Origin: a virus | Length of the DNA: 38,892 bases | Virus record (IMG/VR): IMGVR_UViG_3300045988_147897 | Direction: 5' to 3' (one strand) | Part shown: piece by piece, positions 1-38,892 of the stretch | Layout of the letters: each line of letters opens with the position of its first letter | How positions within the stretch are numbered: position 1 is the stretch's first letter | Program-made: the position numbers and the translations under genes | The notes under the pieces: model-generated | Seen by the model: only the letters and a program-made list of their open reading frames with translations | What the model was told of the DNA's origin: nothing | Databases searched by the model: none

Positions 1-44
1 ACAAGCCCCCCGAACCTCAAAGAAGGAGAAAAACATGGACATGC
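1..44. repeat. 44-bp direct terminal repeat, left copy (acaagccccccgaacctcaaagaaggagaaaaacatggacatgc); identical copy at 38849..38892
   Basis: Exact identity of window positions 1..44 and 38849..38892 read directly from the sequence. The repeat contains the RBS and ATG of the ORF at 35..427. Confidence 0.9.
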
Positions 45-427
45 ACGCCGCAACCCAGGCGTTCAACGAAGCTGCCACAAAGGCATGGACCAACTGCGAC
101 ATCGTCGGTGTCCCCGGCTGCCCCGGCTTTACGTTTGCCGGCCCGGCCTGCCCCACAGAGGGGTTCTTCGTAGCTATCGCCTACAACGGACGCGAGATCG
201 CCCGCGTTGACGGCGACGGCCTCGACCCGATGACGGCACACTTCTACCCGACCCCGCGTGAGGTTGTCGCGCTCGCCGACTTCAAGCACGTTATCAAGAT
301 GATTCGCCAGGGTTTCCTTCTCCCCCTTGACTCCGATTTCAACTACTGGCTCGCAAACAGTGACAGCTCTAGCTACCACTGGGAGTTCGACTCAGGAATC
401 GGTGTTGTGTCTCCCGCCGAGGCCTGA
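35..427 (+). CDS. hypothetical 130-aa protein with 4 Cys (CDIVGVPGCPGFTFAGPACP); candidate moron/lysogenic-conversion gene
   Basis: ORF-track ORF; near-consensus RBS AAGGAGA 7 nt upstream of ATG; followed by a hairpin terminator; only plus-strand gene on the left 36 kb. Confidence 0.55.
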   Translation: MDMHAATQAFNEAATKAWTNCDIVGVPGCPGFTFAGPACPTEGFFVAIAYNGREIARVDGDGLDPMTAHFYPTPREVVALADFKHVIKMIRQGFLLPLDSDFNYWLANSDSSSYHWEFDSGIGVVSPAEA

Positions 428-439
428 CAACAAGGGAAA

Positions 440-476
440 GCCCCCACCGCCCAGAAACGGGTCGGTGGGGGCTTTG
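440..476. terminator. bidirectional intrinsic terminator hairpin (GCCCCCACCG-N13-CGGTGGGGGC followed by TTT)
   Basis: Perfect 10-bp GC stem between convergent genes 35..427(+) and 491..1372(-); T-run on the plus strand and TTTCCC on the minus strand. Confidence 0.6.
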
Positions 477-490
477 CGTGATGCGGGGGC

Positions 491-1372
491 TTAGGGGTGG
501 ACGGTGGTCGGCCAGGAGGCCATGAGGCCGCCCGCGCCCTTCCCGAGCGCGGTCTGCGCCTGCCCCGCGTTCGTGATGATGTGCGCAATTGTGGGCTTTC
601 CGGTCGCGGTGAGTTGCTGCCACGCGGCGGCGGGCGCGTTCCATTCGAGGCCGAGCACGTCCCAGCGGGAGGTATCGGCGGTGGCGAGCTCGTTTGGGTA
701 CATCATGCACATGGTGCGGTATCCGCGTGCCTTGGCGCGGTCCACGGACCCGGCGTTGACAAAGTGCTTCCACAGCACCCGGCGTTCGGGGTGGCCGTTG
801 AAAGCGTCATCGAGCAGATCGTACAGGTCCAGTTCGGCCTGTAGGTCAGAGCTGTTCGCGTCCTGCTTCGATGAGGTCACCTTGTGGTCAATGGCGAGGA
901 CGACGTCGTCGGGGATCTGCTCGAGTAGGTCGGTGAACCTCATGAGCGGCCCCGACGCTTGTCGCAGGGTTTTCAGCGTGTCCCACGGCGTGGACCAGAT
1001 CGGTAGCTTCGTGCCGGGCACGACGCGCTCCGTCGTCCAGTCGTGAATCATCACGTATTCGCCAGACGCGCACCGGCGTAGGGAGATTTCGAGCGCCTTG
1101 AAGCCAGCGCGCAGGGACGCGTCGAGGCCCGCCTGCGTGAATTCCGGGTACTCGGTGCCCCCGAGGCGGTGACTGATGTAGAAGGGCCGCTTCGCTAGGA
1201 ACTCAGCGACCAGGTCACGAGAGGCGCCCGCCGGGGTTGCGGTACGTGGTCGCAGGGGGATGTCGCCGCCTTCGCGTCGGCGGCGGTACAGGCGGCCCGT
1301 CACGTCCCCACCGTCACGACGACGCACGCGCAGCACGCGGCCCACCGGGACGTTTTCGACGGCGTCACGCAT
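491..1372 (-). CDS. glycerophosphodiester phosphodiesterase (GDPD)-family protein; moron
   Basis: Motifs SHRLGG...PEFT...GFKALEISL...GEYVMIHD match the GDPD signature HR(G)..EN/FT..E.D...HD. Start moved to the internal ATG (MRDAVENV) 4 nt after the stop of the upstream gene; the N-terminal 67 aa of the ORF-track ORF are an Arg/Pro-rich out-of-frame extension. Confidence 0.6.
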   Translation of the reverse strand: MRDAVENVPVGRVLRVRRRDGGDVTGRLYRRRREGGDIPLRPRTATPAGASRDLVAEFLAKRPFYISHRLGGTEYPEFTQAGLDASLRAGFKALEISLRRCASGEYVMIHDWTTERVVPGTKLPIWSTPWDTLKTLRQASGPLMRFTDLLEQIPDDVVLAIDHKVTSSKQDANSSDLQAELDLYDLLDDAFNGHPERRVLWKHFVNAGSVDRAKARGYRTMCMMYPNELATADTSRWDVLGLEWNAPAAAWQQLTATGKPTIAHIITNAGQAQTALGKGAGGLMASWPTTVHP

Positions 1373-2459
1373 TGGGCACCACCACCTGGACGCCCGCGCC
1401 GTTCGAGGTCTGCGTGTTCGGGTAGGTGACCGTGAGGTCGCCCGCCTGTGCGGTGCGGCGCGCCACGAGCACGGTCTGCAGGTTGCTGCCTTCCTGGGTG
1501 GCGAACTCAAGGCGATCCCACCCCGTGTTGATGGTGACCTGGTCGGCGGTTTCCGGCGCCGTCGTGCGCTCAAACGCGAACCCGAGCGTCAGGCCGGTCG
1601 TCGTGGGAACCTCGGGGGCCGTGCAGGTGCCCGTCTCAGTGGGTTCGGCCTGGCGCTTCTTGACCTGGCCGACAACGGGGGTGCCGCCGCCGCGGGTGTT
1701 GACGGCTGCCCAGGCGGCCTCGACGGGATGCGACGTGCGCACCGTCAGCTCGGGGGCCCAGGGGCCGACGGCCACCGTGAACCTCATGGTGCCGATCCAG
1801 TAGGGCTCGACGAGTGTCTCAAACCCGGCGGGGAAGGCGAATGACTGGCCGTTGACTGCCTTGGTGTTGACTGCGACGATCGCGCGATCGCCCGCCTGGC
1901 CCGCTGTCTTGATGGCGATCGTGTCGCCGATGTGCTGCCCGGCTGCGTGGCTAACCAGTGTCGGGCCCGCCGCGGGGTTCGGGCGGGTCTCTCCATGGTC
2001 GTCATGTCCCGGCGCGTCTGCCTGCTCGGTGAGCAGATAAACCGTGCCATCGGGGAGGGCTTCGGCTTCGGCGCGGGTGTTCACGATCTTGATGTCTGCG
2101 AGTGTCAGGGGCTTGCCCTGCTCGTCGACGAGGGGCGTCCCGCCGGGGCCGGGGGTTGGGGTGTCGGGCGTGACGGGCTGGGCGGTGAGGAGGTCGCCGA
2201 GCGTCATGGTCTGCCCGTCAGTGAGGGTCACGTCGCGTTCGGCGAGGAGACCTGTCGGGGAGGCGACGGACACGACGTAGCGGCCAGGCCGTAGTTCGGC
2301 GGTGACGTGCCCGTCGTCGCCCTCGCTGGTGACCGAGCCGGGGACGATGAGATCACCGTCAGGCGTGCGCGTGGGATTGGGGTTCGGGGTAGCGGTGATC
2401 GTGACGGTGACGGGCTGGCCGGTTGGCGACTTAACGCGGCCCTTGATGGTGGCAGTCAT
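1365..2459 (-). CDS. hypothetical 364-aa protein with N-terminal CarboxypepD_reg/transthyretin-like beta-sandwich motif (GRV..G.PV...I.A....DG....PGRYVV)
   Basis: ORF-track ORF with ATG and RBS GAGGACC; Thr/Pro-rich linkers; lies after the lysis cassette. Confidence 0.5.
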   Translation of the reverse strand: MTATIKGRVKSPTGQPVTVTITATPNPNPTRTPDGDLIVPGSVTSEGDDGHVTAELRPGRYVVSVASPTGLLAERDVTLTDGQTMTLGDLLTAQPVTPDTPTPGPGGTPLVDEQGKPLTLADIKIVNTRAEAEALPDGTVYLLTEQADAPGHDDHGETRPNPAAGPTLVSHAAGQHIGDTIAIKTAGQAGDRAIVAVNTKAVNGQSFAFPAGFETLVEPYWIGTMRFTVAVGPWAPELTVRTSHPVEAAWAAVNTRGGGTPVVGQVKKRQAEPTETGTCTAPEVPTTTGLTLGFAFERTTAPETADQVTINTGWDRLEFATQEGSNLQTVLVARRTAQAGDLTVTYPNTQTSNGAGVQVVVPNA

Positions 2460-2550
2460 TGGTGGTCCTCACTGTGTAGCTGGGCGGTGCAGGGGGGTGC
2501 CCCGCCGCCCACGCCGCGAGCCTCGGGGGTCGTCGCGGCGCGGGGGCGGG

Positions 2551-3045
2551 TTACTTGGTGTCGCGGGCTTCTAGCGCCTCGATGCGGTCATAGATCGACT
2601 TATGCGTGTCGTGCGCGTGCGCGTCGATCAGGCGAGTCGCCGATTCGCGGGCGGTGCGTTCGTCGTGGATCTCCGCTGACATGCGGGCGCCGCGCTCATC
2701 GATGCGGTCGATGCGGGCCTTCAAGTCCGACAGGCTTTCGCCGTGGCTGTCGAGCGTGGACGCGACGCGGTCGACCGCTTCACTGACGGCCTTCACCGTG
2801 TCGCGCACGGTGTCGAGGTCGTCCCTGATGTTGGTGCTGTGGTCGTTGCTGACCTGAGCGTCGGCGGACTGGGCGGCGGCCTTCGCCTCCTCAGCGGCGC
2901 GGGTCGCCCGTTGTAGGTGCGACTCCATGCTGGTTTTCAGGCGTGCAAAGCCGACGGCGGCGGCGCCGCCCAGACCGGCGATCAGGACGGCGACCAGCCC
3001 GTTCAACGCCTCGATGACCTTAGGGTCGGTGAGGATACTGGTCAC
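2551..3045 (-). CDS. membrane-anchored coiled-coil protein (one N-terminal TM helix, long heptad-rich C-terminus); possible lysis accessory or moron
   Basis: Hydrophobic segment LNGLVAVLIAGLGGAAAVGF followed by a charged Ala-rich coiled-coil-like sequence; ATGA overlap with the holin stop. Confidence 0.45.
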   Translation of the reverse strand: MTSILTDPKVIEALNGLVAVLIAGLGGAAAVGFARLKTSMESHLQRATRAAEEAKAAAQSADAQVSNDHSTNIRDDLDTVRDTVKAVSEAVDRVASTLDSHGESLSDLKARIDRIDERGARMSAEIHDERTARESATRLIDAHAHDTHKSIYDRIEALEARDTK

Positions 3046-3458
3046 TGGGCACGGTCACCGCCCGAACCACGGTCCGCGTCGCGGGCGGCCAGCCAGGCGT
3101 TCAGGTCGGAATACTTGCGCACTTCCTCGACGGTTTCGCCGCCGGGGGTCAGGGCGCCCGCCCAGTCAATCAGGGACACGCCGTTGATCTTGATGCCCGA
3201 GAGCACCTGGAACACGGACCACGCGACGCCCAGGAACACGGACGCCTGCGCGAGGAAAAGCTGCCAGGTCGCCGGGTAGGAGCCCGAGACCCAGACGGCG
3301 AGAGAGACGACGACGGCGACGCCCGCGAGCAGAACCTTACGGCGGGCGGGTGTCCAGTACGGGCGGTCGAGCGCCGCCTGCACGACAGGCCAGATCAGGC
3401 CGACAACGACCGTCACCAGGAACGGATCGGCCTGCAAGCCGAGGAGGAGATTGTTCAC
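3042..3458 (-). CDS. putative holin (3 predicted TM helices)
   Basis: GTG start with RBS GGAGAAGGGA, 1 nt after the endolysin stop; TM segments PFLVTVVVGLIWPVV, VLLAGVAVVVSLAVWV and LFLAQASVFLGVAWSVF; the upstream part of the ORF-track ORF is an out-of-frame extension overlapping the endolysin gene. Confidence 0.55.
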   Translation of the reverse strand: MNNLLLGLQADPFLVTVVVGLIWPVVQAALDRPYWTPARRKVLLAGVAVVVSLAVWVSGSYPATWQLFLAQASVFLGVAWSVFQVLSGIKINGVSLIDWAGALTPGGETVEEVRKYSDLNAWLAARDADRGSGGDRAQ

Positions 3459-3459
3459 G

Positions 3460-4296
3460 TCAGTTTCCCTTCTCCGCGCCCGCGAGCGCGGTGTTAATCG
3501 CGGTGTTTGTGGTGGGGCCGTAGATTTCGTCGTCGTCCACGCCGACGGCGCGCTGGAGGTCGCCGACGACGCGGTCGTGCGCCTCGTCCGATGCGTCTCC
3601 CCAGATGCCGTCCGCCTCCGTGCCGATGACGGACTGGACGTACTCCACGCCGAAGGGGAACTGGCGGCCTCCCCAGGAGCTTGCGGCGACCACGGCATAG
3701 ATGCGCTTGGTGGTGTCGGGGCCGATGATGTTGTCGGTGGTTGCGCCGACCGCAGCCTGCAGCGCCGTGACATCGGTGTAACCGGAGGCGGTGGGCGCTT
3801 CGCCGTAGTGCGGTCGGATGATGGCGCAGACCGAGTCCCAGCCTCGGGTGCGGCGCCACACGCCGCCGCCGTTCGACTGCGAGCCCGCTGCGCCCGAGCT
3901 GGTGTTGAATTCGATGGTCTGCAGCCATCCGCCGTAGTTGGCTTCGACGATGCCGACGTGGTCGGCGATTCCGTCGTCGTCCCAGTCGAAGCAGACCAGG
4001 TCGCCGGGCGCGGCCTGAGTCATCGGGGAGACGAGTCGGCCTTCGCGGGCGGCGGCGTTGATGCCGTAGGGGACGTAAGCGAAGTCGCCGCCGGGTAGGA
4101 CGGACTGTTTCTCTTCGTCGGTCGCGCACCAGGACGCGCCCATAGCGCAGAAAGGCACGCCCGACGTTCCGTAGTAGGCGCCGTGCTTCTGGGCATACCA
4201 ACGTCCGTACTTCGAGCCTTCCTCGGGGTCGTCCCATCGGGTGTAGCCGATTTCGCCCGCTGCCCAGGCGAGGACGTTCTGTGCGGTCATGCTCAT
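3460..4296 (-). CDS. endolysin: N-terminal Cys/His peptidase (CHAP/NlpC-P60-like) domain plus two C-terminal PG_binding_1-like repeats
   Basis: Conserved Cys (GVPFCAMGASW) and His (IADHVGIVE) context; C-terminal repeats LQAAVGATTDNIIGPDTTKRI and LQRAVGVDDDEIYGPTTNTAI. Confidence 0.75.
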   Translation of the reverse strand: MSMTAQNVLAWAAGEIGYTRWDDPEEGSKYGRWYAQKHGAYYGTSGVPFCAMGASWCATDEEKQSVLPGGDFAYVPYGINAAAREGRLVSPMTQAAPGDLVCFDWDDDGIADHVGIVEANYGGWLQTIEFNTSSGAAGSQSNGGGVWRRTRGWDSVCAIIRPHYGEAPTASGYTDVTALQAAVGATTDNIIGPDTTKRIYAVVAASSWGGRQFPFGVEYVQSVIGTEADGIWGDASDEAHDRVVGDLQRAVGVDDDEIYGPTTNTAINTALAGAEKGN

Positions 4297-4406
4297 CGGT
4301 CGGCCTCCGTCTGCTCGTAGGGGATGAAGATCGGGTCGACGACGTCGGGCGGCGTGTCCGTCGCGGGCGTCATCGATGCCATAAGCTGCTCGATGGTCGG
4401 TTCCAT
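4293..4406 (-). CDS. small acidic 37-aa ORF (MEPTIEQLMASMTPATDTPPDVVDPIFIPYEQTEADR) coupled to the endolysin start
   Basis: Strong RBS GAGGAG 6 nt upstream of ATG; ATGA overlap with the endolysin start; below the ORF-track length cutoff. Confidence 0.35.
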   Translation of the reverse strand: MEPTIEQLMASMTPATDTPPDVVDPIFIPYEQTEADR

Positions 4407-4433
4407 GTGTTTCTCCTCTTCGGGTATGGGAAA

Positions 4434-4459
4434 GCCCTCGGACGGGCGTGTCCGAGGGC
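4434..4459. terminator. hairpin GCCCTCGGAC-GGGCGT-GTCCGAGGGC between the tail genes and the lysis cassette
   Basis: Perfect 10-bp stem directly downstream (minus strand) of the stop of gene 4478..5101. Confidence 0.5.
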
Positions 4460-4477
4460 CTGAAGAATTGGTGTCTG

Positions 4478-5101
4478 TCAGTAGCCGGTGGCGTGGAAAG
4501 TGAAGCTCACGGCGGTGGCCACGTCACGATCAGGGAAGGTCAAACGGAACCCGGTCGCGTTGACGATGTCGACCGCCCAGCGGGTCGGGACGTGCGCGTT
4601 AACGTCCGCGTTCACCTGCCCGTACGCGAACGTGACGCCCACGTGGACACAGTCATCAGGGAAACTAACCGGGAAGTTGATAAACGGGGTGACGCAACGC
4701 TTCGCGCCGGCGACGCCCTCGTACTGCGCGAACCCAGTCCAGCGCCCATGCTGCTCCACGCGCGGCGCCTGGGCGGGGACCGACGCCTTCGCGCCGACAA
4801 CCCAGTTACCCGCGGCGGCCCCGTACGTGATGACAGGGGTCAGGCGCGTGAGTTCCCACTGGCCGCGCTGATTCTTCCTGCCCTCGCACTTGTGGACATG
4901 ATTTGACATGTCAAAGTAGATCGGGCGCGCCTGCGTAGGCGGCTGTCCCGCGCGTGCGGCGGCGTTGCAGATGTTCACCGCCTCGTCGTAGGTATCGACG
5001 TGGTTGATGTGGCTGATCGATCCGGCGGTCTTTGGCCAGGTGGCGAGGATGTCCTCGCCGGCCTCGGGCACACGGACACGGTTCCAGTTTTCGACGGTCA
5101 C
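4478..5101 (-). CDS. hypothetical tail-associated protein (207 aa)
   Basis: ORF-track ORF located between the tail-fibre gene and the lysis cassette; no recognisable motif. Confidence 0.45.
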   Translation of the reverse strand: MTVENWNRVRVPEAGEDILATWPKTAGSISHINHVDTYDEAVNICNAAARAGQPPTQARPIYFDMSNHVHKCEGRKNQRGQWELTRLTPVITYGAAAGNWVVGAKASVPAQAPRVEQHGRWTGFAQYEGVAGAKRCVTPFINFPVSFPDDCVHVGVTFAYGQVNADVNAHVPTRWAVDIVNATGFRLTFPDRDVATAVSFTFHATGY

Positions 5102-5112
5102 GGTGGTTCCCC

Positions 5113-6849
5113 TTACTGTCGCAGGTAGGTGGCGGCGAATCTGTAGTCCTTCAAAGTGGCGTAGGACTTTTGTGTTGATTGCAGGGCGATTCCGAGGCGC
5201 TCGCCCTCAGCGCAGCGGATCATGCCTGACGTGCGGATCGTCATGTACTGGCCGGGGCCGGCGGACCCGTACGCGTAGACAGATCCGAACGCTGAGGTCG
5301 GGGAATAGACAGCGCCCCTTGCGGCGTTCGTGACCGCGAGCAGCACTGTTCCGTCCCACCCGTAGGACTTGACCGCCGCCCACGCCTCGACCTGATACAC
5401 GCCGGCTTTCGGGACCGTGACGGTCTGCCCACCGTCCGACGACTTCCAGGTGCCGCCGGTCTCTACGAGCTTCCGCCCGCCCGTTAGGAGCTGTAGGCGG
5501 TTCCACACGTCATTGTTGAACACCGTGGACGTGACCTCGCCCGACGCCCAGCACAAGGCCGGCTTGTCCGCGAGCGCATCCCAAGGCACTTCAGTTACCA
5601 GGGTCCGGCGCCCGTTGAGGGTCTGCCAGTAGGCGAGGCCGGTCGGGGTGAGCGCCGCGTCATTGCCCTTGCCGTCTGCGAGCTGAATCTGCACGGCTTG
5701 ATTGGTGCGGGTCATGCTTATACGCGACGGTGCGGGGTCTGAGTACGCCTCGGTCCAGTTCGTGAGGGTGAGGCGGATCGGCCAGTGGCGGCCAGCCGAG
5801 GGCACGGTGAGCGGCCAGGTGGCGGTGACCCTGATCTGGCGGTCGTCGGTGGCCTCGAGGTCGCCGACGTTCAGGGTGAGCGTGCGCGTTGTGGCCTGGC
5901 TGGTCGAGGTGGCGCTGACGGCGGGGTCACCGCCGATCAGGTAGGTCGCCGTGACGGTCGCGCCGGCGGGGGCAGTCAGGGTGAGGGTCACGCGCAGGTC
6001 GCGCACGGCTTTGCCGGTGGTGGGTGTCTGGTAGGTTTCGACGTGTTCGGGCCCCCATGTGGGCTGGGCGATCTCAAAAACCGGGTGCCCGCCTTGCCAG
6101 CGGGCGGTGGTCGCGGGGTTCTGGCCGTTCGGGGCCCCTTGGGTGAATGCGGCGCGCCAGAGCATGAGTTGGTCGCCGCGTTGGGTGCGGGCGGTGCCGA
6201 CGCCGCCGAGCACGAACTCAGAGCCGCGCAGTTGTGCGCCGCTAATCCACTTGCCGGTGATCCGGTCTGCGATCAGCTCGCCGGGAATGACGGCGTTTTC
6301 GGCGCGGATCTTGTCGACGACCGTGAGGGTGTCGAAAGCGGCGAGCTTGCTGTAGAGCGCTTCGGATGCGACGATTTCGCGGGCGGTGACAGTGCCGGCC
6401 TTGATGCGGGAACCGTCGATAGGGCCGGTGGAGGCTTCGGCGATCTTGCGGGTGAGGTCGTCGCGGGTTTCCTCGATGGCGGCCTGCGCACCCTGCAGGG
6501 CGGCGGACGCCTGGTTCGCGGCGTCGCGGGCGGCCTTCGCGGCCTCGCCCACGGGCACCGTCACAACGCCGGTCGGAGCGGTGACGGTGGGCGCGTGGGC
6601 AAGGGTGGCTACCCCGGTGGTGTCGCGGTCGAGGCGGACGGGCGCGCCCTGCCAGGTGATGCCAGCCGTCGAGGGCACGACAACGCTGGTGCCGGGCGGG
6701 GCGCCGTGGGGGGTGACCTCGACGAGGCCGGCGCCCTGGTCGACGATGCCCGTCACTGTGCCCTGCACGGGCCCCGTGTGCGGTGCGGGGCCGCGCTGTG
6801 GGGTAAGGTCAAGCCAATCAGAGAGGCTATCGAGCTGAGACACTTGCAT
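5113..6849 (-). CDS. tail fibre / receptor-binding minor tail protein (about 578 aa, Thr/Gly/Ala-rich, beta-rich)
   Basis: Position after the Dit/Tal-like genes; ORF-track start is TTG, so the start was moved to ATG (MQVSQLDS) with a GGAGG RBS. Confidence 0.55.
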   Translation of the reverse strand: MQVSQLDSLSDWLDLTPQRGPAPHTGPVQGTVTGIVDQGAGLVEVTPHGAPPGTSVVVPSTAGITWQGAPVRLDRDTTGVATLAHAPTVTAPTGVVTVPVGEAAKAARDAANQASAALQGAQAAIEETRDDLTRKIAEASTGPIDGSRIKAGTVTAREIVASEALYSKLAAFDTLTVVDKIRAENAVIPGELIADRITGKWISGAQLRGSEFVLGGVGTARTQRGDQLMLWRAAFTQGAPNGQNPATTARWQGGHPVFEIAQPTWGPEHVETYQTPTTGKAVRDLRVTLTLTAPAGATVTATYLIGGDPAVSATSTSQATTRTLTLNVGDLEATDDRQIRVTATWPLTVPSAGRHWPIRLTLTNWTEAYSDPAPSRISMTRTNQAVQIQLADGKGNDAALTPTGLAYWQTLNGRRTLVTEVPWDALADKPALCWASGEVTSTVFNNDVWNRLQLLTGGRKLVETGGTWKSSDGGQTVTVPKAGVYQVEAWAAVKSYGWDGTVLLAVTNAARGAVYSPTSAFGSVYAYGSAGPGQYMTIRTSGMIRCAEGERLGIALQSTQKSYATLKDYRFAATYLRQ

Positions 6850-12950: not shown

Positions 12951-13472
12951 TCAGAGAACGTCGCCGGCGGCTTCCACGTCCTCGGCGGCGTCCATGATGT
13001 TCAGCTTCGCGGTGCGCTTGATGTAGCCCGCGAAGCGGTCGGACGGCTTGGTAGGCGTTCCGAGGACGGCCTCGTACACCGACACGATGTCACCAATTTC
13101 CAGCGGCTTGGACTCGACGGGGCCTTCACGTTCGACCAGCCAAATTGTCGTCCCCTTCTTCTTGATGAGGTCCCAGACGAAGTCGTCGGCGGCGACCGGC
13201 TTGCCTTCCTCGTCGAGGTAGCGCAGAACGGTGATGTTGCCAGCGTAAGTCGTAGGCCCGGGGGCCTTGCCATCGCCCTTCTTACACATTTCCTGTTCAG
13301 CGATTTCCGTGTCCGACTCAGCGCCGAGCGCGTAGTCGCTCTTCAGGATGTGGCACGAAATCTTCTTGCCAGCGGTGATTTCAGCGACGGCGGGCTTCGC
13401 CAGGTTCTTTGGCTTCGTGGTGAGCGCCCACAGGGCGATGCGGCCATCGGCCAAGGTCTTAGCTCCGGGCAT
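12951..13472 (-). CDS. major tail (tube) protein
   Basis: Position and size (173 aa from internal Met MPGAKTLADG); the upstream ORF-track extension is Arg/Pro/His-rich junk. Confidence 0.55.
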   Translation of the reverse strand: MPGAKTLADGRIALWALTTKPKNLAKPAVAEITAGKKISCHILKSDYALGAESDTEIAEQEMCKKGDGKAPGPTTYAGNITVLRYLDEEGKPVAADDFVWDLIKKKGTTIWLVEREGPVESKPLEIGDIVSVYEAVLGTPTKPSDRFAGYIKRTAKLNIMDAAEDVEAAGDVL

Positions 13473-14114: not shown

Positions 14115-14494
14115 AGCTCTCCTACAATGTCGGCGACGGCCTTCTGGAATGCCGCGGCTTCTTCGTTCAACGGTTCGATGGGGTCGCGGGTGTGGCCGCC
14201 GCCCCGGCTGGTGCCGAAATAGGCGATATTCGCCAGGGCGCCAGAGGGTTTGTCGGGGCCGATCTCCGCTTCAATGGTGTGATCCCCGTCGATGAGGTCG
14301 TACGAGATGGACCGGGCGACGGCGCGGATGCCCACGTTGCCCGACGCTTCGAGGTCTGCCTGCATGGCGCGTTTGATGTTCAGCGCGCCCCGGCTCACGG
14401 CGGGCCTAAGCCAACGCGAGAGTTCGCCAGGCATCCGGGTAGCGTCGGCGGCGATCTGCCTAACCTCGGTGGTGTCAATCTCGATGCCACTCAC
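14105..14494 (-). CDS. HK97 gp10-like head-tail joining protein
   Basis: GTG start (VSGIEIDTTEVRQ) with RBS GGAGA, GTGA overlap with the upstream stop; 129 aa; the rest of the ORF-track ORF is an out-of-frame extension across the neighbouring genes. Confidence 0.45.
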   Translation of the reverse strand: MSGIEIDTTEVRQIAADATRMPGELSRWLRPAVSRGALNIKRAMQADLEASGNVGIRAVARSISYDLIDGDHTIEAEIGPDKPSGALANIAYFGTSRGGGHTRDPIEPLNEEAAAFQKAVADIVGELWG

Positions 14495-37320: not shown

Positions 37321-37548
37321 GTGTCACGTGACACGCGCACAACGTCACGCAACGGTGTTTTACGCCTATTCAAGGCCAGTCAGAAAAACCGACTTTGCAT
37401 TGCAAAATCAAGACCTTTCCCCACCGTCGCACCGCAAACCCAAAAACACCCTGTGCAGAGACATGGTCCCCACACCCTCACAACAAAAACCGCACTATTC
37501 TGCGGTAAAGTGGGGATGTGGGGGCCGCGTGACACGCGCGCGTGACAC
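37321..37548. repeat. GTGACAC/GTGTCAC heptamer sites: palindrome GTGTCACGTGACAC (37321..37334) and GTGACACGCGCGCGTGACAC (37527..37548) bracketing a 190-bp A-rich region of about 50% GC
   Basis: Read directly; lies immediately upstream of the int start at 37618. Confidence 0.6.
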
Positions 37549-37617: not shown

Positions 37618-38781
37618 ATGGCATCTGTCAAGGCGGTAACGCACCGTGACGGCACCGTCGTGTACCGGGTCCGATACCGCGCGGGAGGCCGAAACCCAGT
37701 CGTGGAAACCTTCTATGATGCCGCGAGCGCCCAGCGCTTCGCCGACCTCGTCGATCGCATCGGCGGGGCAGCCGCCCGCGAGCTGCGCAGCCTCGACGAC
37801 CTGGCCGCCGCCGACACGCCCACCGTCGCCGCGGCGCTCGAACACCACCTCGAAGCCCTAGCCGCGTCCGCTACGCCTGGCACGATCAGTCGATACCGTC
37901 AGATCGTGCGCGACCGCATCGAACCCCACCTCGGCCTAATCCCCGTTGACATGCTCACCCGTCACACGGTCACGAAGTGGGTCGCCGACATTCGCCACAC
38001 GCCCGTCACGCGCGGGGCCACCGCCGGGCGGCCCCCGTCAGCAAAGACAATCCGCAACGCCCAAGCCCTCCTCAGTGCGGCCCTGCAACGCCTTGTCAAC
38101 GAGGATGTGATTCCCCGCAACGTTGCGAAGGCCGTCCCCCTCCCTAAGGACGCGACCGTTCGTGAGATGAGGTTCCTCACCCCCGACGAGTTCGCGCGCC
38201 TCCACGCACAGATCCCCGCCGATTACCAGCCGTTCGTCGCTGCCATGTATGGCCTCGGCCTACGCTTCGGCGAGGCAACCGCCCTCACGGTCGCCGACAT
38301 CGACCTCGACGTCGCCCAACCAGTCGTGCGAGTGAATAAGGCCTGGAAGGTTGGCGAACACGGGTCCCGCTATCTAGGGGCCCCGAAAACCAAGCGCGGG
38401 CGGCGAACAGTCACCATCCCCGCGCCCCTGGTCCCTGAGCTGCGCGGCGCGCTCGCGGGTAAGGCGGCGGATGAGCTGGTATTCACGGCGCGCAGGGGCG
38501 GGCCGATCACGTCGGCGCCGTTCCATAATCACATCTGGCGGCCTGCGTGTGATGCGGCTGGGTTGTCGCCGCGGCCGCGCGTGCATGATCTGCGTCATTC
38601 GCACGCGTCGGCGCTGATCGCTGCCGGCGTGCCTCTGCCTGTGGTGCAGCGCCGCATGGGCCACGAGTCGATTCAAATGACGGTTGACGTGTATGGGCAT
38701 CTAGCGCCCGATGCCTACGCGGGCGCTGCTGAGGCTATGAGCGTGGCCATGGGAGGGGTTGCGCCTCAACTCGGCATGTGA
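37618..38781 (+). CDS. int: tyrosine integrase (site-specific recombinase, phage integrase family)
   Basis: C-terminal catalytic context HDLRHSHASALIAAGVPLPVVQRRMGHESIQMTVDVYGHL (R...HxxR...Y); N-terminal SAM-like domain. Confidence 0.9.
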   Translation: MASVKAVTHRDGTVVYRVRYRAGGRNPVVETFYDAASAQRFADLVDRIGGAAARELRSLDDLAAADTPTVAAALEHHLEALAASATPGTISRYRQIVRDRIEPHLGLIPVDMLTRHTVTKWVADIRHTPVTRGATAGRPPSAKTIRNAQALLSAALQRLVNEDVIPRNVAKAVPLPKDATVREMRFLTPDEFARLHAQIPADYQPFVAAMYGLGLRFGEATALTVADIDLDVAQPVVRVNKAWKVGEHGSRYLGAPKTKRGRRTVTIPAPLVPELRGALAGKAADELVFTARRGGPITSAPFHNHIWRPACDAAGLSPRPRVHDLRHSHASALIAAGVPLPVVQRRMGHESIQMTVDVYGHLAPDAYAGAAEAMSVAMGGVAPQLGM

Positions 38782-38848
38782 TACACAGCTCCCTGATGTA
38801 GCTTGCGTGATACATTGTGCGCGGGCTATAGTTATTACATCGGGAGGG

Positions 38849-38892
38849 ACAAGCCCCCCGAACCTCAAAGAAGGAGAAAAACATGGACATGC
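38849..38892. repeat. 44-bp direct terminal repeat, right copy (identical to 1..44), 67 bp after the int stop
   Basis: Exact identity read directly. Confidence 0.9.

Follow-up and report, generated by a model that had tools for sequence, protein, structure and literature searches.

The window analysed here, a 38,892-nucleotide (nt) stretch of viral DNA (IMG/VR record IMGVR_UViG_3300045988_147897), carries next to its lysis genes four open reading frames (ORFs), encoding proteins of 164, 364, 293 and 130 amino acids (aa), which an earlier note on this sequence had interpreted as a moron or lysogenic-conversion cluster. We propose instead, with a probability of about 0.6, that the 364-aa protein and the 293-aa protein, a glycerophosphodiester phosphodiesterase (GDPD) homologue, are a late wall-polymer phosphodiesterase, split into a partner carrying a domain here called X and the GDPD and probably virion-associated, that the 164-aa protein belongs to the lysis cassette, and that the 130-aa gene is variable cargo. 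The four ORFs do lie downstream of the holin, as had been noted, following a CHAP-domain lysin gene and the gene for a holin-like protein with three transmembrane (TM) segments (Table 1).

The window is siphovirus-like, with a GC content of ~63-71% and nearly all genes on the minus strand. Actinomyces phage xhp1 (86% DNA identity over the lysin region) is the one isolate in the phage collection to which it is related, the metagenomic relatives come largely from human oral samples, and the window phage is an oral Actinomyces/Schaalia phage. Comparisons were made with five relatives (xhp1, L005, L009, L010 and L012), in which the orthologues of the 364-aa protein are 49-92% identical to that of the window.

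The evidence for a split enzyme comes from phages in which its two parts are found in one chain. A tblastn search with the 364-aa protein matched the N-terminal part of CN1A gp51, a 728-aa 'phosphodiesterase' of a Clavibacter phage whose C-terminal part is a GDPD homologue, and alignment revealed the same layout in gp29 of Hyperion (512 aa) and gp45 of vB_MoxS-R1 (624 aa), both Microbacterium phages, namely an N-terminal domain of ~220 aa ending in YPN.Q..NG..Q, a short linker and the GDPD. A family search in 1.84 billion representative proteins yielded 846 members (clusters at 50% identity), mostly of 450-800 aa, in which the GDPD starts near residue 230-300. A profile of X seeded with residues 160-364 of the window protein was run for five iterations. 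The first pass detected X in 33 of the top 150; after the last, 84 of the 96 representatives with 180 or more residues before the GDPD were found to contain X, always N-terminal to the GDPD. Plain BLASTP is enough to recover both parts in the 629-aa protein P0141, where X (39% identity) and the GDPD (41% identity) are found together. Since X is fused to this type of GDPD in most relatives, the 364-aa protein and the GDPD of the window appear to be the split form of a two-domain enzyme, whose architecture prevails in a large GDPD subfamily of actinophages. The fusion proteins (phrog_17803: CN1A gp51, Hyperion gp29, vB_MoxS-R1 gp45, gp77 of the Microbacterium phage ValentiniPuff and the metagenomic P0141) have the same two domains in the same order as the window pair and share with it the catalytic set, the LE.S motif and the YPN.Q..NG sequence at the end of X. 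They consist, however, of one polypeptide of ~480-800 aa, whereas in the window there are two overlapping genes and X is preceded by N-terminal domains of its own; also unlike the window, several of the fusion phages have a lytic life cycle, with the gene located within the capsid-tail block.

A programmed +1 frameshift at CCC-AAT, which the window sequence would allow and which would fuse the 364-aa and GDPD reading frames, was considered and rejected, given that the corresponding junctions of xhp1, L005, L010 and L012 share no slippery motif and that the overlap is in a different frame in L012. Because the junctions differ in this way among the relatives, ordinary translational coupling is preferred over frameshifting. 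A 360-aa ORF starting from 1573 was likewise rejected as the GDPD gene, as xhp1 gp28 is also a 293-aa protein with the same 8-nt overlap.

As to the GDPD itself, its match to Pfam PF03009 (27.6 bits) is above the cut-off of 23.6 bits and covers profile positions 1-122 only, whereas phrog_17803 is matched with an E-value of 4e-103. The family profile recovers at least 25 solved GDPDs in the PDB (best E 4e-19), among them the baseplate protein of Staphylococcus phage 812 (9eul/9euf, E ~8e-16). The predicted GDPD fold, for which the earlier note had asked for a profile search, is thereby confirmed by profile comparison. When residue conservation was counted over 145-147 aligned relatives, near invariance was observed for H68 (97%), R69 (98%), E77 (97%), E95 (95%), H110 (98%), D111 (99%), K164 (99%) and H264 (97%), and the catalytic layout HR ... 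HD ... x.K is intact in the window protein. The canonical set of three acidic metal ligands (E.D plus a downstream Glu) is not found there, since E95 is kept but S97 replaces the Asp and D162 replaces the Glu. The E95-I-S97 motif had been recognized before and taken as a reason to doubt activity; among the relatives, position 97 is nevertheless Ser in 127 out of 147 (86%) and Asp in only 5 (3%), and position 162, the third ligand, is Asp in 84% and Glu in 16%. The E.S motif, a hallmark of the subfamily, is thus a selected signature located beside an intact catalytic His pair rather than a sign of decay.

The likeness to canonical GDPDs (UgpQ/GlpQ, Thermoanaerobacter tengcongensis 2pz0 and Staphylococcus aureus 2oog) consists of the TIM-barrel profile match and the HR...E...E.x...HD...x.K layout. 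The window GDPD departs from UgpQ/GlpQ in having Ser for the Asp of E.D and in the third-ligand Glu, which is mostly Asp (D.K) in the subfamily. GlpQ is a secreted protein with a signal peptide, and in this the window GDPD, which has none, is also different. The NCBIfam metabolic GDPDs gave weak matches far under their cut-offs (34.5 versus 264 bits). The N-terminal 55 aa of the window protein are Arg-rich and contain a duplicated, linker-like RRRxGGD segment (RVRRRDGGDV and YRRRREGGDI, residues 12-40), a duplication which is also present in xhp1; in the fused relatives, it is the X-GDPD linker that aligns with this motif, and the Arg-rich segment is a candidate docking site for the 364-aa partner.

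The 364-aa protein comprises, from its N to its C terminus, a CarboxypepD_reg-like beta-sandwich (~residues 1-90), a Pro/Thr-rich linker, a small middle domain and the all-beta domain X (~165-364). The CarboxypepD_reg-like domain, already pointed out in the earlier note, was recovered as a Pfam match, though a sub-threshold one (E 1.7e-6, 28.7 bits against a cut-off of 32.3); many homologues with 85-92% identity carry a precomputed PF13620 call, and the protein also matches phrog_30808. Searches for X gave no family in Pfam, nor did any solved structure prove to be related to it in sequence. In an AlphaFold2 model of the 364-aa protein built with 32 homologues, residues 165-364 are all-beta, with a predicted local distance difference test score (pLDDT) >90. 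Comparison of X with the BFVD folds retrieved the N-terminal parts of GDPD fusion proteins (ValentiniPuff and CMP1) and many 'minor tail proteins' of Mycobacterium and Gordonia phages (E 1e-6 to 1e-4, target TM-score up to 0.66-0.72).

In xhp1, the X protein (gp27) has a fibre-like N-terminus in place of the CarboxypepD_reg-like domain; it is encoded by tandem DNA repeats of 54 and 81 nt (xhp1 4565-4757) that give rise to LSGYATK.E-type peptide repeats resembling a fibre stalk. Homology between xhp1 gp26 and the N-terminal domain of the 364-aa protein is not claimed, as BLASTP gave nothing (E >0.3).

The possibility that these genes serve lysogenic conversion was weighed against their conservation. 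According to this explanation, they would be morons expressed from the prophage, with the GDPD remodelling teichoic acid or phospholipid head groups and so causing receptor change or superinfection exclusion, and their position within ~4 kb of int and attP is indeed a classic place for conversion genes. However, the 164-aa, 364-aa and GDPD genes keep their order and orientation in all five relatives (46-92% identity), even where the lysin has been exchanged, and their coding sequences mostly overlap or abut in these phages, as they do in the window (GTGA and ATGcgTGA). Their GC content at third codon positions (GC3) is 0.83-0.86, the same as in the genes for tail, portal and terminase. A simple scan, which also missed the leader promoter described below, gave no sigma-70-like promoter in positions 1-4500. 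In 19-residue Kyte-Doolittle windows (no dedicated signal-peptide predictor was run), no hydrophobic N-terminus or TM segment is seen in either the 364-aa protein or the GDPD, and in the latter no h-region comes after the Arg-rich N-terminus; because there is no export signal, a GDPD expressed from the prophage would stay in the cytoplasm and would not reach teichoic acid. In addition, homologues are present in strictly lytic phages, and PADLOC returned 0 matches. Hyperion, for instance, is a lytic phage of cluster EG with no integrase or repressor (PMC7302621).

Lysogens of Xhp1 do exclude superinfection (PMC13578794), a phenotype that has not been linked to these genes, but the exclusion acts after attachment, which removal of a receptor would not predict. 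The hairpin that precedes the 364-aa gene in this sublineage could be the sign of a separate transcription unit. Altogether, lysogenic conversion by these genes seems highly improbable, and the 164-aa, 364-aa and GDPD genes are core late genes, not variable cargo. The idea that they lack any virion or lysis role was an assumption, contradicted by the comparative data. Thus, of the moron cluster proposed in the earlier note, only the 130-aa gene is left, as judged by its leader, terminator, GC content and variable slot, whereas for the other three genes synteny, GC3, gene overlaps and the lack of an export signal speak against such a role.

It is reasonable to suppose that the window pair acts on the host wall, and walls of Actinomycetota commonly contain phosphodiester-linked glycopolymers. 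The 8-nt overlap suggests that translation of the two genes is coupled, and the 364-aa protein and the GDPD probably form a complex, in which X and the N-terminal beta-sandwich would provide attachment or carbohydrate binding and the GDPD would hydrolyse phosphodiester bonds in a teichoic-acid-like cell-wall glycopolymer or a related head group. The pair would act in the lytic cycle, most likely as a virion-associated accessory fibre or enzyme for adsorption and wall penetration and, less likely, as a soluble enzyme released at lysis. A virion or late role is favoured by the position of the fusion gene in the capsid-tail block (between capsid and tail genes in CN1A, Hyperion and Magritte), by the lytic phages that carry the gene, by the resemblance of the X fold to minor tail proteins, by the stalk of xhp1 gp27 and by the immunogold signal of the xhp1 GDPD in lytically infected cells (PMC13578794). 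The X-GDPD gene is co-oriented with the late genes in all cases compared; moreover, the protein P0269 joins the GDPD to the minor-tail region of phrog_17388, and phrog_16641, a 'tail fiber protein' family, contains this GDPD. From these comparisons, we estimate the chance that the pair is carried on the virion at about even.

A GDPD fold within a virion has a precedent in Staphylococcus phage 812 (Kayvirus), whose central spike bears a GDPD-fold petal domain proposed to cleave wall teichoic acid during penetration (PMC13433997). Its baseplate protein is similar to the window GDPD in belonging to a phage of a Gram-positive host, in the GDPD fold and in keeping the two catalytic His residues; it differs in that it comes from the baseplate of a myovirus, has ~840 aa, is encoded among the tail genes and lacks X, and in that its virion location is established by cryo-electron microscopy.

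The same pair could instead be a lysis accessory, that is, a soluble enzyme released with the endolysin through the holin lesion, which would strip or cleave phosphodiester-linked wall polymers from within and thereby aid lysis or, in the manner of LysB or a receptor-destroying enzyme, destroy the receptors on cell debris and keep the progeny from being trapped there. Several observations are in agreement with this idea. In at least five lineages (the window, xhp1, ValentiniPuff, vB_MoxS-R1 and ZL12) the gene directly follows the lysis genes and not the tail genes, a position that fits a lysis-accessory role equally well; it belongs to the same tight late operon as the lysis genes, and neither protein has a signal peptide, like the holin-dependent CHAP lysin. 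Furthermore, the GDPD of xhp1, which had been called a 'predicted baseplate-associated protein' by analogy, was seen by immunogold in cells under lytic infection, the recombinant protein having been made only to raise the antibody (PMC13578794). On the other hand, the fusion genes of CN1A, Hyperion and Magritte are far from the lysis cassette, and the minor-tail likeness of X, the joining of GDPD to tail-protein regions in some relatives and the fibre-like repeat stalk of xhp1 gp27 do not favour a lysis enzyme, so that we consider this explanation rather unlikely.

Besides the position after the lysis genes, other points weigh against a virion-associated split phosphodiesterase. With a Ser at the metal site, metal-dependent catalysis could be changed or lost altogether, and the later iterations of the X profile may include some drift. 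The N-terminal domain of the 364-aa model is of low confidence (pLDDT 43-67), the 'minor tail protein' labels in BFVD are themselves mostly predictions, and the PDB matches, which involve only the N-terminal beta-sandwich, are marginal (Ur-lambda tail tip, XM1 neck, A-1(L) neck fibre and DEV collar; E 1e-3 to 7e-2). The hairpin at 2501-2550 parts the 164-aa gene from the 364-aa gene in this sublineage, and the pair could therefore be regulated independently. Finally, we found no virion proteomics or enzymology in the literature for any member of the X-GDPD subfamily.

A metabolic function has also been considered for proteins of this type, since a phosphorus-acquisition role was proposed for the vB_MoxS-R1 homologue (PMC9030533). 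As an auxiliary metabolic gene, the GDPD would free glycerol-3-phosphate or phosphate from glycerophosphodiesters under phosphorus limitation, with which a cytoplasmic location is compatible and to which the weak NCBIfam matches mentioned above could be related. Nevertheless, the near-constant fusion or coupling to a tail-like beta domain of ~200 aa has no metabolic rationale, the gene belongs to structural or lysis operons, nutrients are plentiful in the oral cavity, where the host lives, and the altered metal site sets the family apart from UgpQ/GlpQ. A metabolic role is, in our view, extremely improbable, and a late wall-directed enzyme remains the interpretation that we prefer.

Table 1. 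Positions of the genes and elements discussed, in the window and in its relatives.
Feature	Sequence	Positions	Strand	Remarks
130-aa protein	window	35..427	+	converges on the GDPD gene across a hairpin
Bidirectional terminator-like hairpin	window	~437..475	both	-37.6 (+) / -34.7 (-) kcal/mol, z -4.0 / -4.6; flanked by AAA and TTT
GDPD	window	491..1372	-	293 aa; 8-nt overlap (ATGcgTGA) between its ATG and the 364-aa stop
Fibre-like protein	window	1365..2459	-	364 aa
Gap between 164-aa and 364-aa genes	window	2460-2550		91 nt; holds a strong GC hairpin
GC-rich hairpin in the 164-aa/364-aa gap	window	2501..2550	-	-48.9 kcal/mol, z -3.8; no U-tract
164-aa membrane/coiled-coil protein	window	2551..3045	-	start overlaps the holin stop (GTGA)
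Holin-like protein	window	3042..3458	-	138 aa; ~3 TM-like segments; phrog_565 holin, E 0.001; 79% identity to xhp1 gp24
Endolysin, CHAP domain	window	3460..4296	-	278 aa; Pfam CHAP, E 1.4e-7; 94% identity to xhp1 'lysin'; starts the lysis cassette; CHAP type also in xhp1 and L009
Tyrosine integrase (int)	window	37618..38781	+	387 aa; L005 orthologue matches Pfam Phage_integrase; transcribed towards the 130-aa gene
Promoter-like leader of the 130-aa gene	window	38803..38882	+	TTGCGT, 18 nt, TATAGT, 5' untranslated region with GGGAGGG...CCCCCC hairpin, GAAGGAG, ATG
Endolysin, ELLD-type	L005	8138-9025		295 aa
Endolysin, Amidase_2	L010	5177-6121
Endolysin, Amidase_2	L012	5311-6096
Leader, two copies	L005	~13188-13291 and 14335-14434		equivalents in L010 and L012

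The third member of the conserved trio, the 164-aa protein, had been described as a membrane-anchored coiled-coil protein, a description that agrees with its single N-terminal hydrophobic segment (~residues 10-36 by hydropathy), its charged, helical remainder and the generic coiled-coil matches which are the only ones beyond the TM segment, a match to DUF2746 being sub-threshold. Its best PHROG match is phrog_15808 (E 7.5e-30), a family with no annotated function; weaker matches include phrog_404 ('minor tail') and Rz-like spanins (E 3e-4 to 7e-3), the latter maybe due to coiled-coil composition. Its 222 homologue clusters in the big-database search are all within this phage group, the search giving only close relatives, none with an informative name, and tblastn against phage genomes gave xhp1 as the sole match. 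The gene lies directly after the holin gene in xhp1, L005, L009, L010 and L012.

Judging from position and topology, the 164-aa protein could be a holin partner or timing factor of the lysis cassette, with the topology of a type-II-like membrane protein. Gp5 of mycobacteriophage Ms6 is reportedly a second holin-like or lysis-timing protein of an actinophage lysis cassette, and the window protein resembles proteins of this kind, and the Rz i-spanins in topology, in being small, with one N-terminal TM segment and a long charged or coiled C-terminal part, and in being encoded directly after, and overlapping, the holin gene. It has no significant sequence relation to any characterised lysis protein, and a host without an outer membrane does not need a spanin. 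The holin-like gene itself has a GTG start 4 nt past the lysin stop. The endolysin has been exchanged among the syntenic relatives, three types being present (Table 1), and the holin and the three downstream genes have not moved.

The GC-rich hairpin in the gap after the 164-aa gene is conserved in L005, L006 and L009, whereas xhp1, L010 and L012, whose genes abut or overlap at this point, do not have it; it may be an attenuator or an RNA-stability element of the distal late transcript. A simple terminator scan flagged neither this hairpin nor that at 437-475, and both rest on direct folding and conservation.

The fourth gene differs from the others. The 130-aa protein is an acidic, cytoplasmic ORFan with 15 homologue clusters, all of them in relatives of ~38-40 kb. 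It had been described as a four-Cys protein, but it has only three Cys residues (21, 29 and 39), of which C21 and C29 alone are invariant in the family, and a four-Cys zinc protein was accordingly rejected. No Pfam, PHROG, NCBIfam or PADLOC match was found for it; its AlphaFold2 model has a pLDDT of 64 and gave no match below E 0.4 in a Foldseek search of the PDB. The gene has a GC content of 0.61 and a GC3 of 0.76, versus 0.67-0.69 and 0.83-0.87 for the late genes. Its AAGGAG ribosome-binding site, previously called the best in the window, is one of about six equally good ones. The bidirectional terminator reported beside the gene corresponds to a terminator-like hairpin that is stable on both strands. 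The slot, at the end of the rightward genes on the int side, is itself variable: L005 has an acidic protein of 132 aa there and L012 one of 69 aa, both unrelated to the window protein, and L010 has a homologue with 71% identity. Because it has its own leader, a terminator, a lower GC content and a variable slot, the 130-aa gene is predicted to be the only moron-like gene here, a separately transcribed piece of variable cargo next to int.

Upstream of the 130-aa gene there is a promoter-like leader of ~90 nt, recognised at the level of motifs and composed of TTGC.., 18 nt, TATAGT, then TCGGGAGGGACAAGCCCCCCGAACCTCA, then GAAGGAG. The simple sigma-70 scan did not flag it, the -35 hexamer matching at 3 of 6 positions. 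L005, L009, L010 and L012 each have two copies of the leader, which precede different genes, and its core is nearly invariant even where the phage proteins are only 50-70% identical. It could be a shared promoter/operator, a hairpin for translational control or a recombination hotspot for cargo exchange.

The duplicated leader also explains the ends of the window. Bases 1-44 are identical to bases 38849-38892, and since the first 44 bases repeat the last 44, the ends of the linear window are not biological ends. The earlier note had placed the genes beside a terminal repeat, at the end opposite int; both statements are artefacts of the cut, and the cluster is int-proximal. As a physical genome end or an att site the 44-nt repeat was rejected, because it is the 3' part of the duplicated internal leader, of which the window holds one full copy, and attP is located at ~37467. 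Since the window ends lie within an internal repeat, int reads straight into the 130-aa gene. L009, which is 100% identical to window positions 1-6427, holds both leader copies and, between them, three genes encoding a 115-aa protein, a 136-aa helix-turn-helix protein and a 71-aa MerR-type Xis-like protein, altogether 1.15 kb (compare L009 1-1220); the 136-aa and 71-aa genes are present in every relative and absent from the window. The missing 1.15 kb could be due either to recombination between the two leaders or, more likely, to assembly collapse across them, and the window is probably not a complete genome.

The chromosomal context was provided by L005, an integrated relative on an 83.6-kb contig. 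Tail genes, lysin, holin and the 164-aa, 364-aa and GDPD genes come in this order, and beyond the GDPD there are convergent genes for proteins of 230, 132, 71, 136 and 113 aa, followed by int, a transfer-messenger RNA (tmRNA) gene and ABC-transporter genes of the host. L005 and the window cease to be homologous at window position 37467, just upstream of int (region ~37389-37520; L005 15741-16116), and in L005 this point overlaps the 3' end of the tmRNA (ssrA) gene, which implies attP at this point and integration at ssrA. Within the prophage, the cluster is thus found on the side of int, and the region is the place where the late operon and the int-side gene set run towards each other and end at a shared hairpin. 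In three relatives, the last gene of the int-side set, convergent with the GDPD, encodes a protein of 229-230 aa with a C-terminal ROS/MucR zinc-finger regulator (L005 12033-12725, L010 9029-9718 and L012 8965-9657); this gene is absent from the window and L009. In the window, ARAGORN found no tRNA, and a scan of the whole window with Rfam matched 0 families.

The closest described system is that of xhp1 (MG941013), a prophage of Schaalia odontolytica XH001 that is said to be linear-plasmid-like. The region of xhp1 gp25-gp28 has the same order of lysin, holin, TM/coiled-coil protein, X protein and GDPD, with a convergent int, and identities to the window of 94% for the lysin, 79% for the holin, 46% for the 164-aa protein, 51% for the X domain and 60% for the GDPD. 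The xhp1 GDPD has the same E.S motif (ALEVSV) and its gene the same 8-nt overlap. In contrast to the window, xhp1 has an extra 135-aa gene (gp26) and lacks the 130-aa gene between GDPD and int, and the integrases of the two share only 28% identity. A GDPD-type wall enzyme at the end of the late/lysis operon is already annotated in xhp1, and to this the split X-GDPD architecture and the Ser-substituted site of a large family make a modest addition.

We tentatively suggest, as a more speculative idea, that the X-GDPD family as a whole (~850 clusters) is an actinophage head, neck or tail fibre tipped by a Ser-substituted phosphodiesterase which cleaves phosphodiester-linked wall glycopolymers of Actinomycetota, either teichoic-acid-like or made of glycosyl phosphates, and which in the oral Schaalia phages is put together from the products of two coupled genes. 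If this is true, the X-GDPD appendage could contribute to the reported binding of Xhp1-like phage to the Saccharibacteria episymbiont TM7x.

More generally, proximity to int, a position after the lysis genes and the lack of an obvious structural role do not make a gene a moron. The three published or proposed readings of these GDPDs, as a phosphorus-related auxiliary metabolic gene, a baseplate protein or a lysogenic-conversion factor, rest on no direct test, and the comparative data argue for a late wall-directed enzyme working with a partner domain. It is the 130-aa gene and the duplicated leader that mark where the cargo of this phage group really varies. Since the Schaalia-TM7x system with Xhp1 is an experimental model, the view of gp27 and gp28 as a split module bears both on the identification of the receptor and on anti-GDPD immunolabelling.

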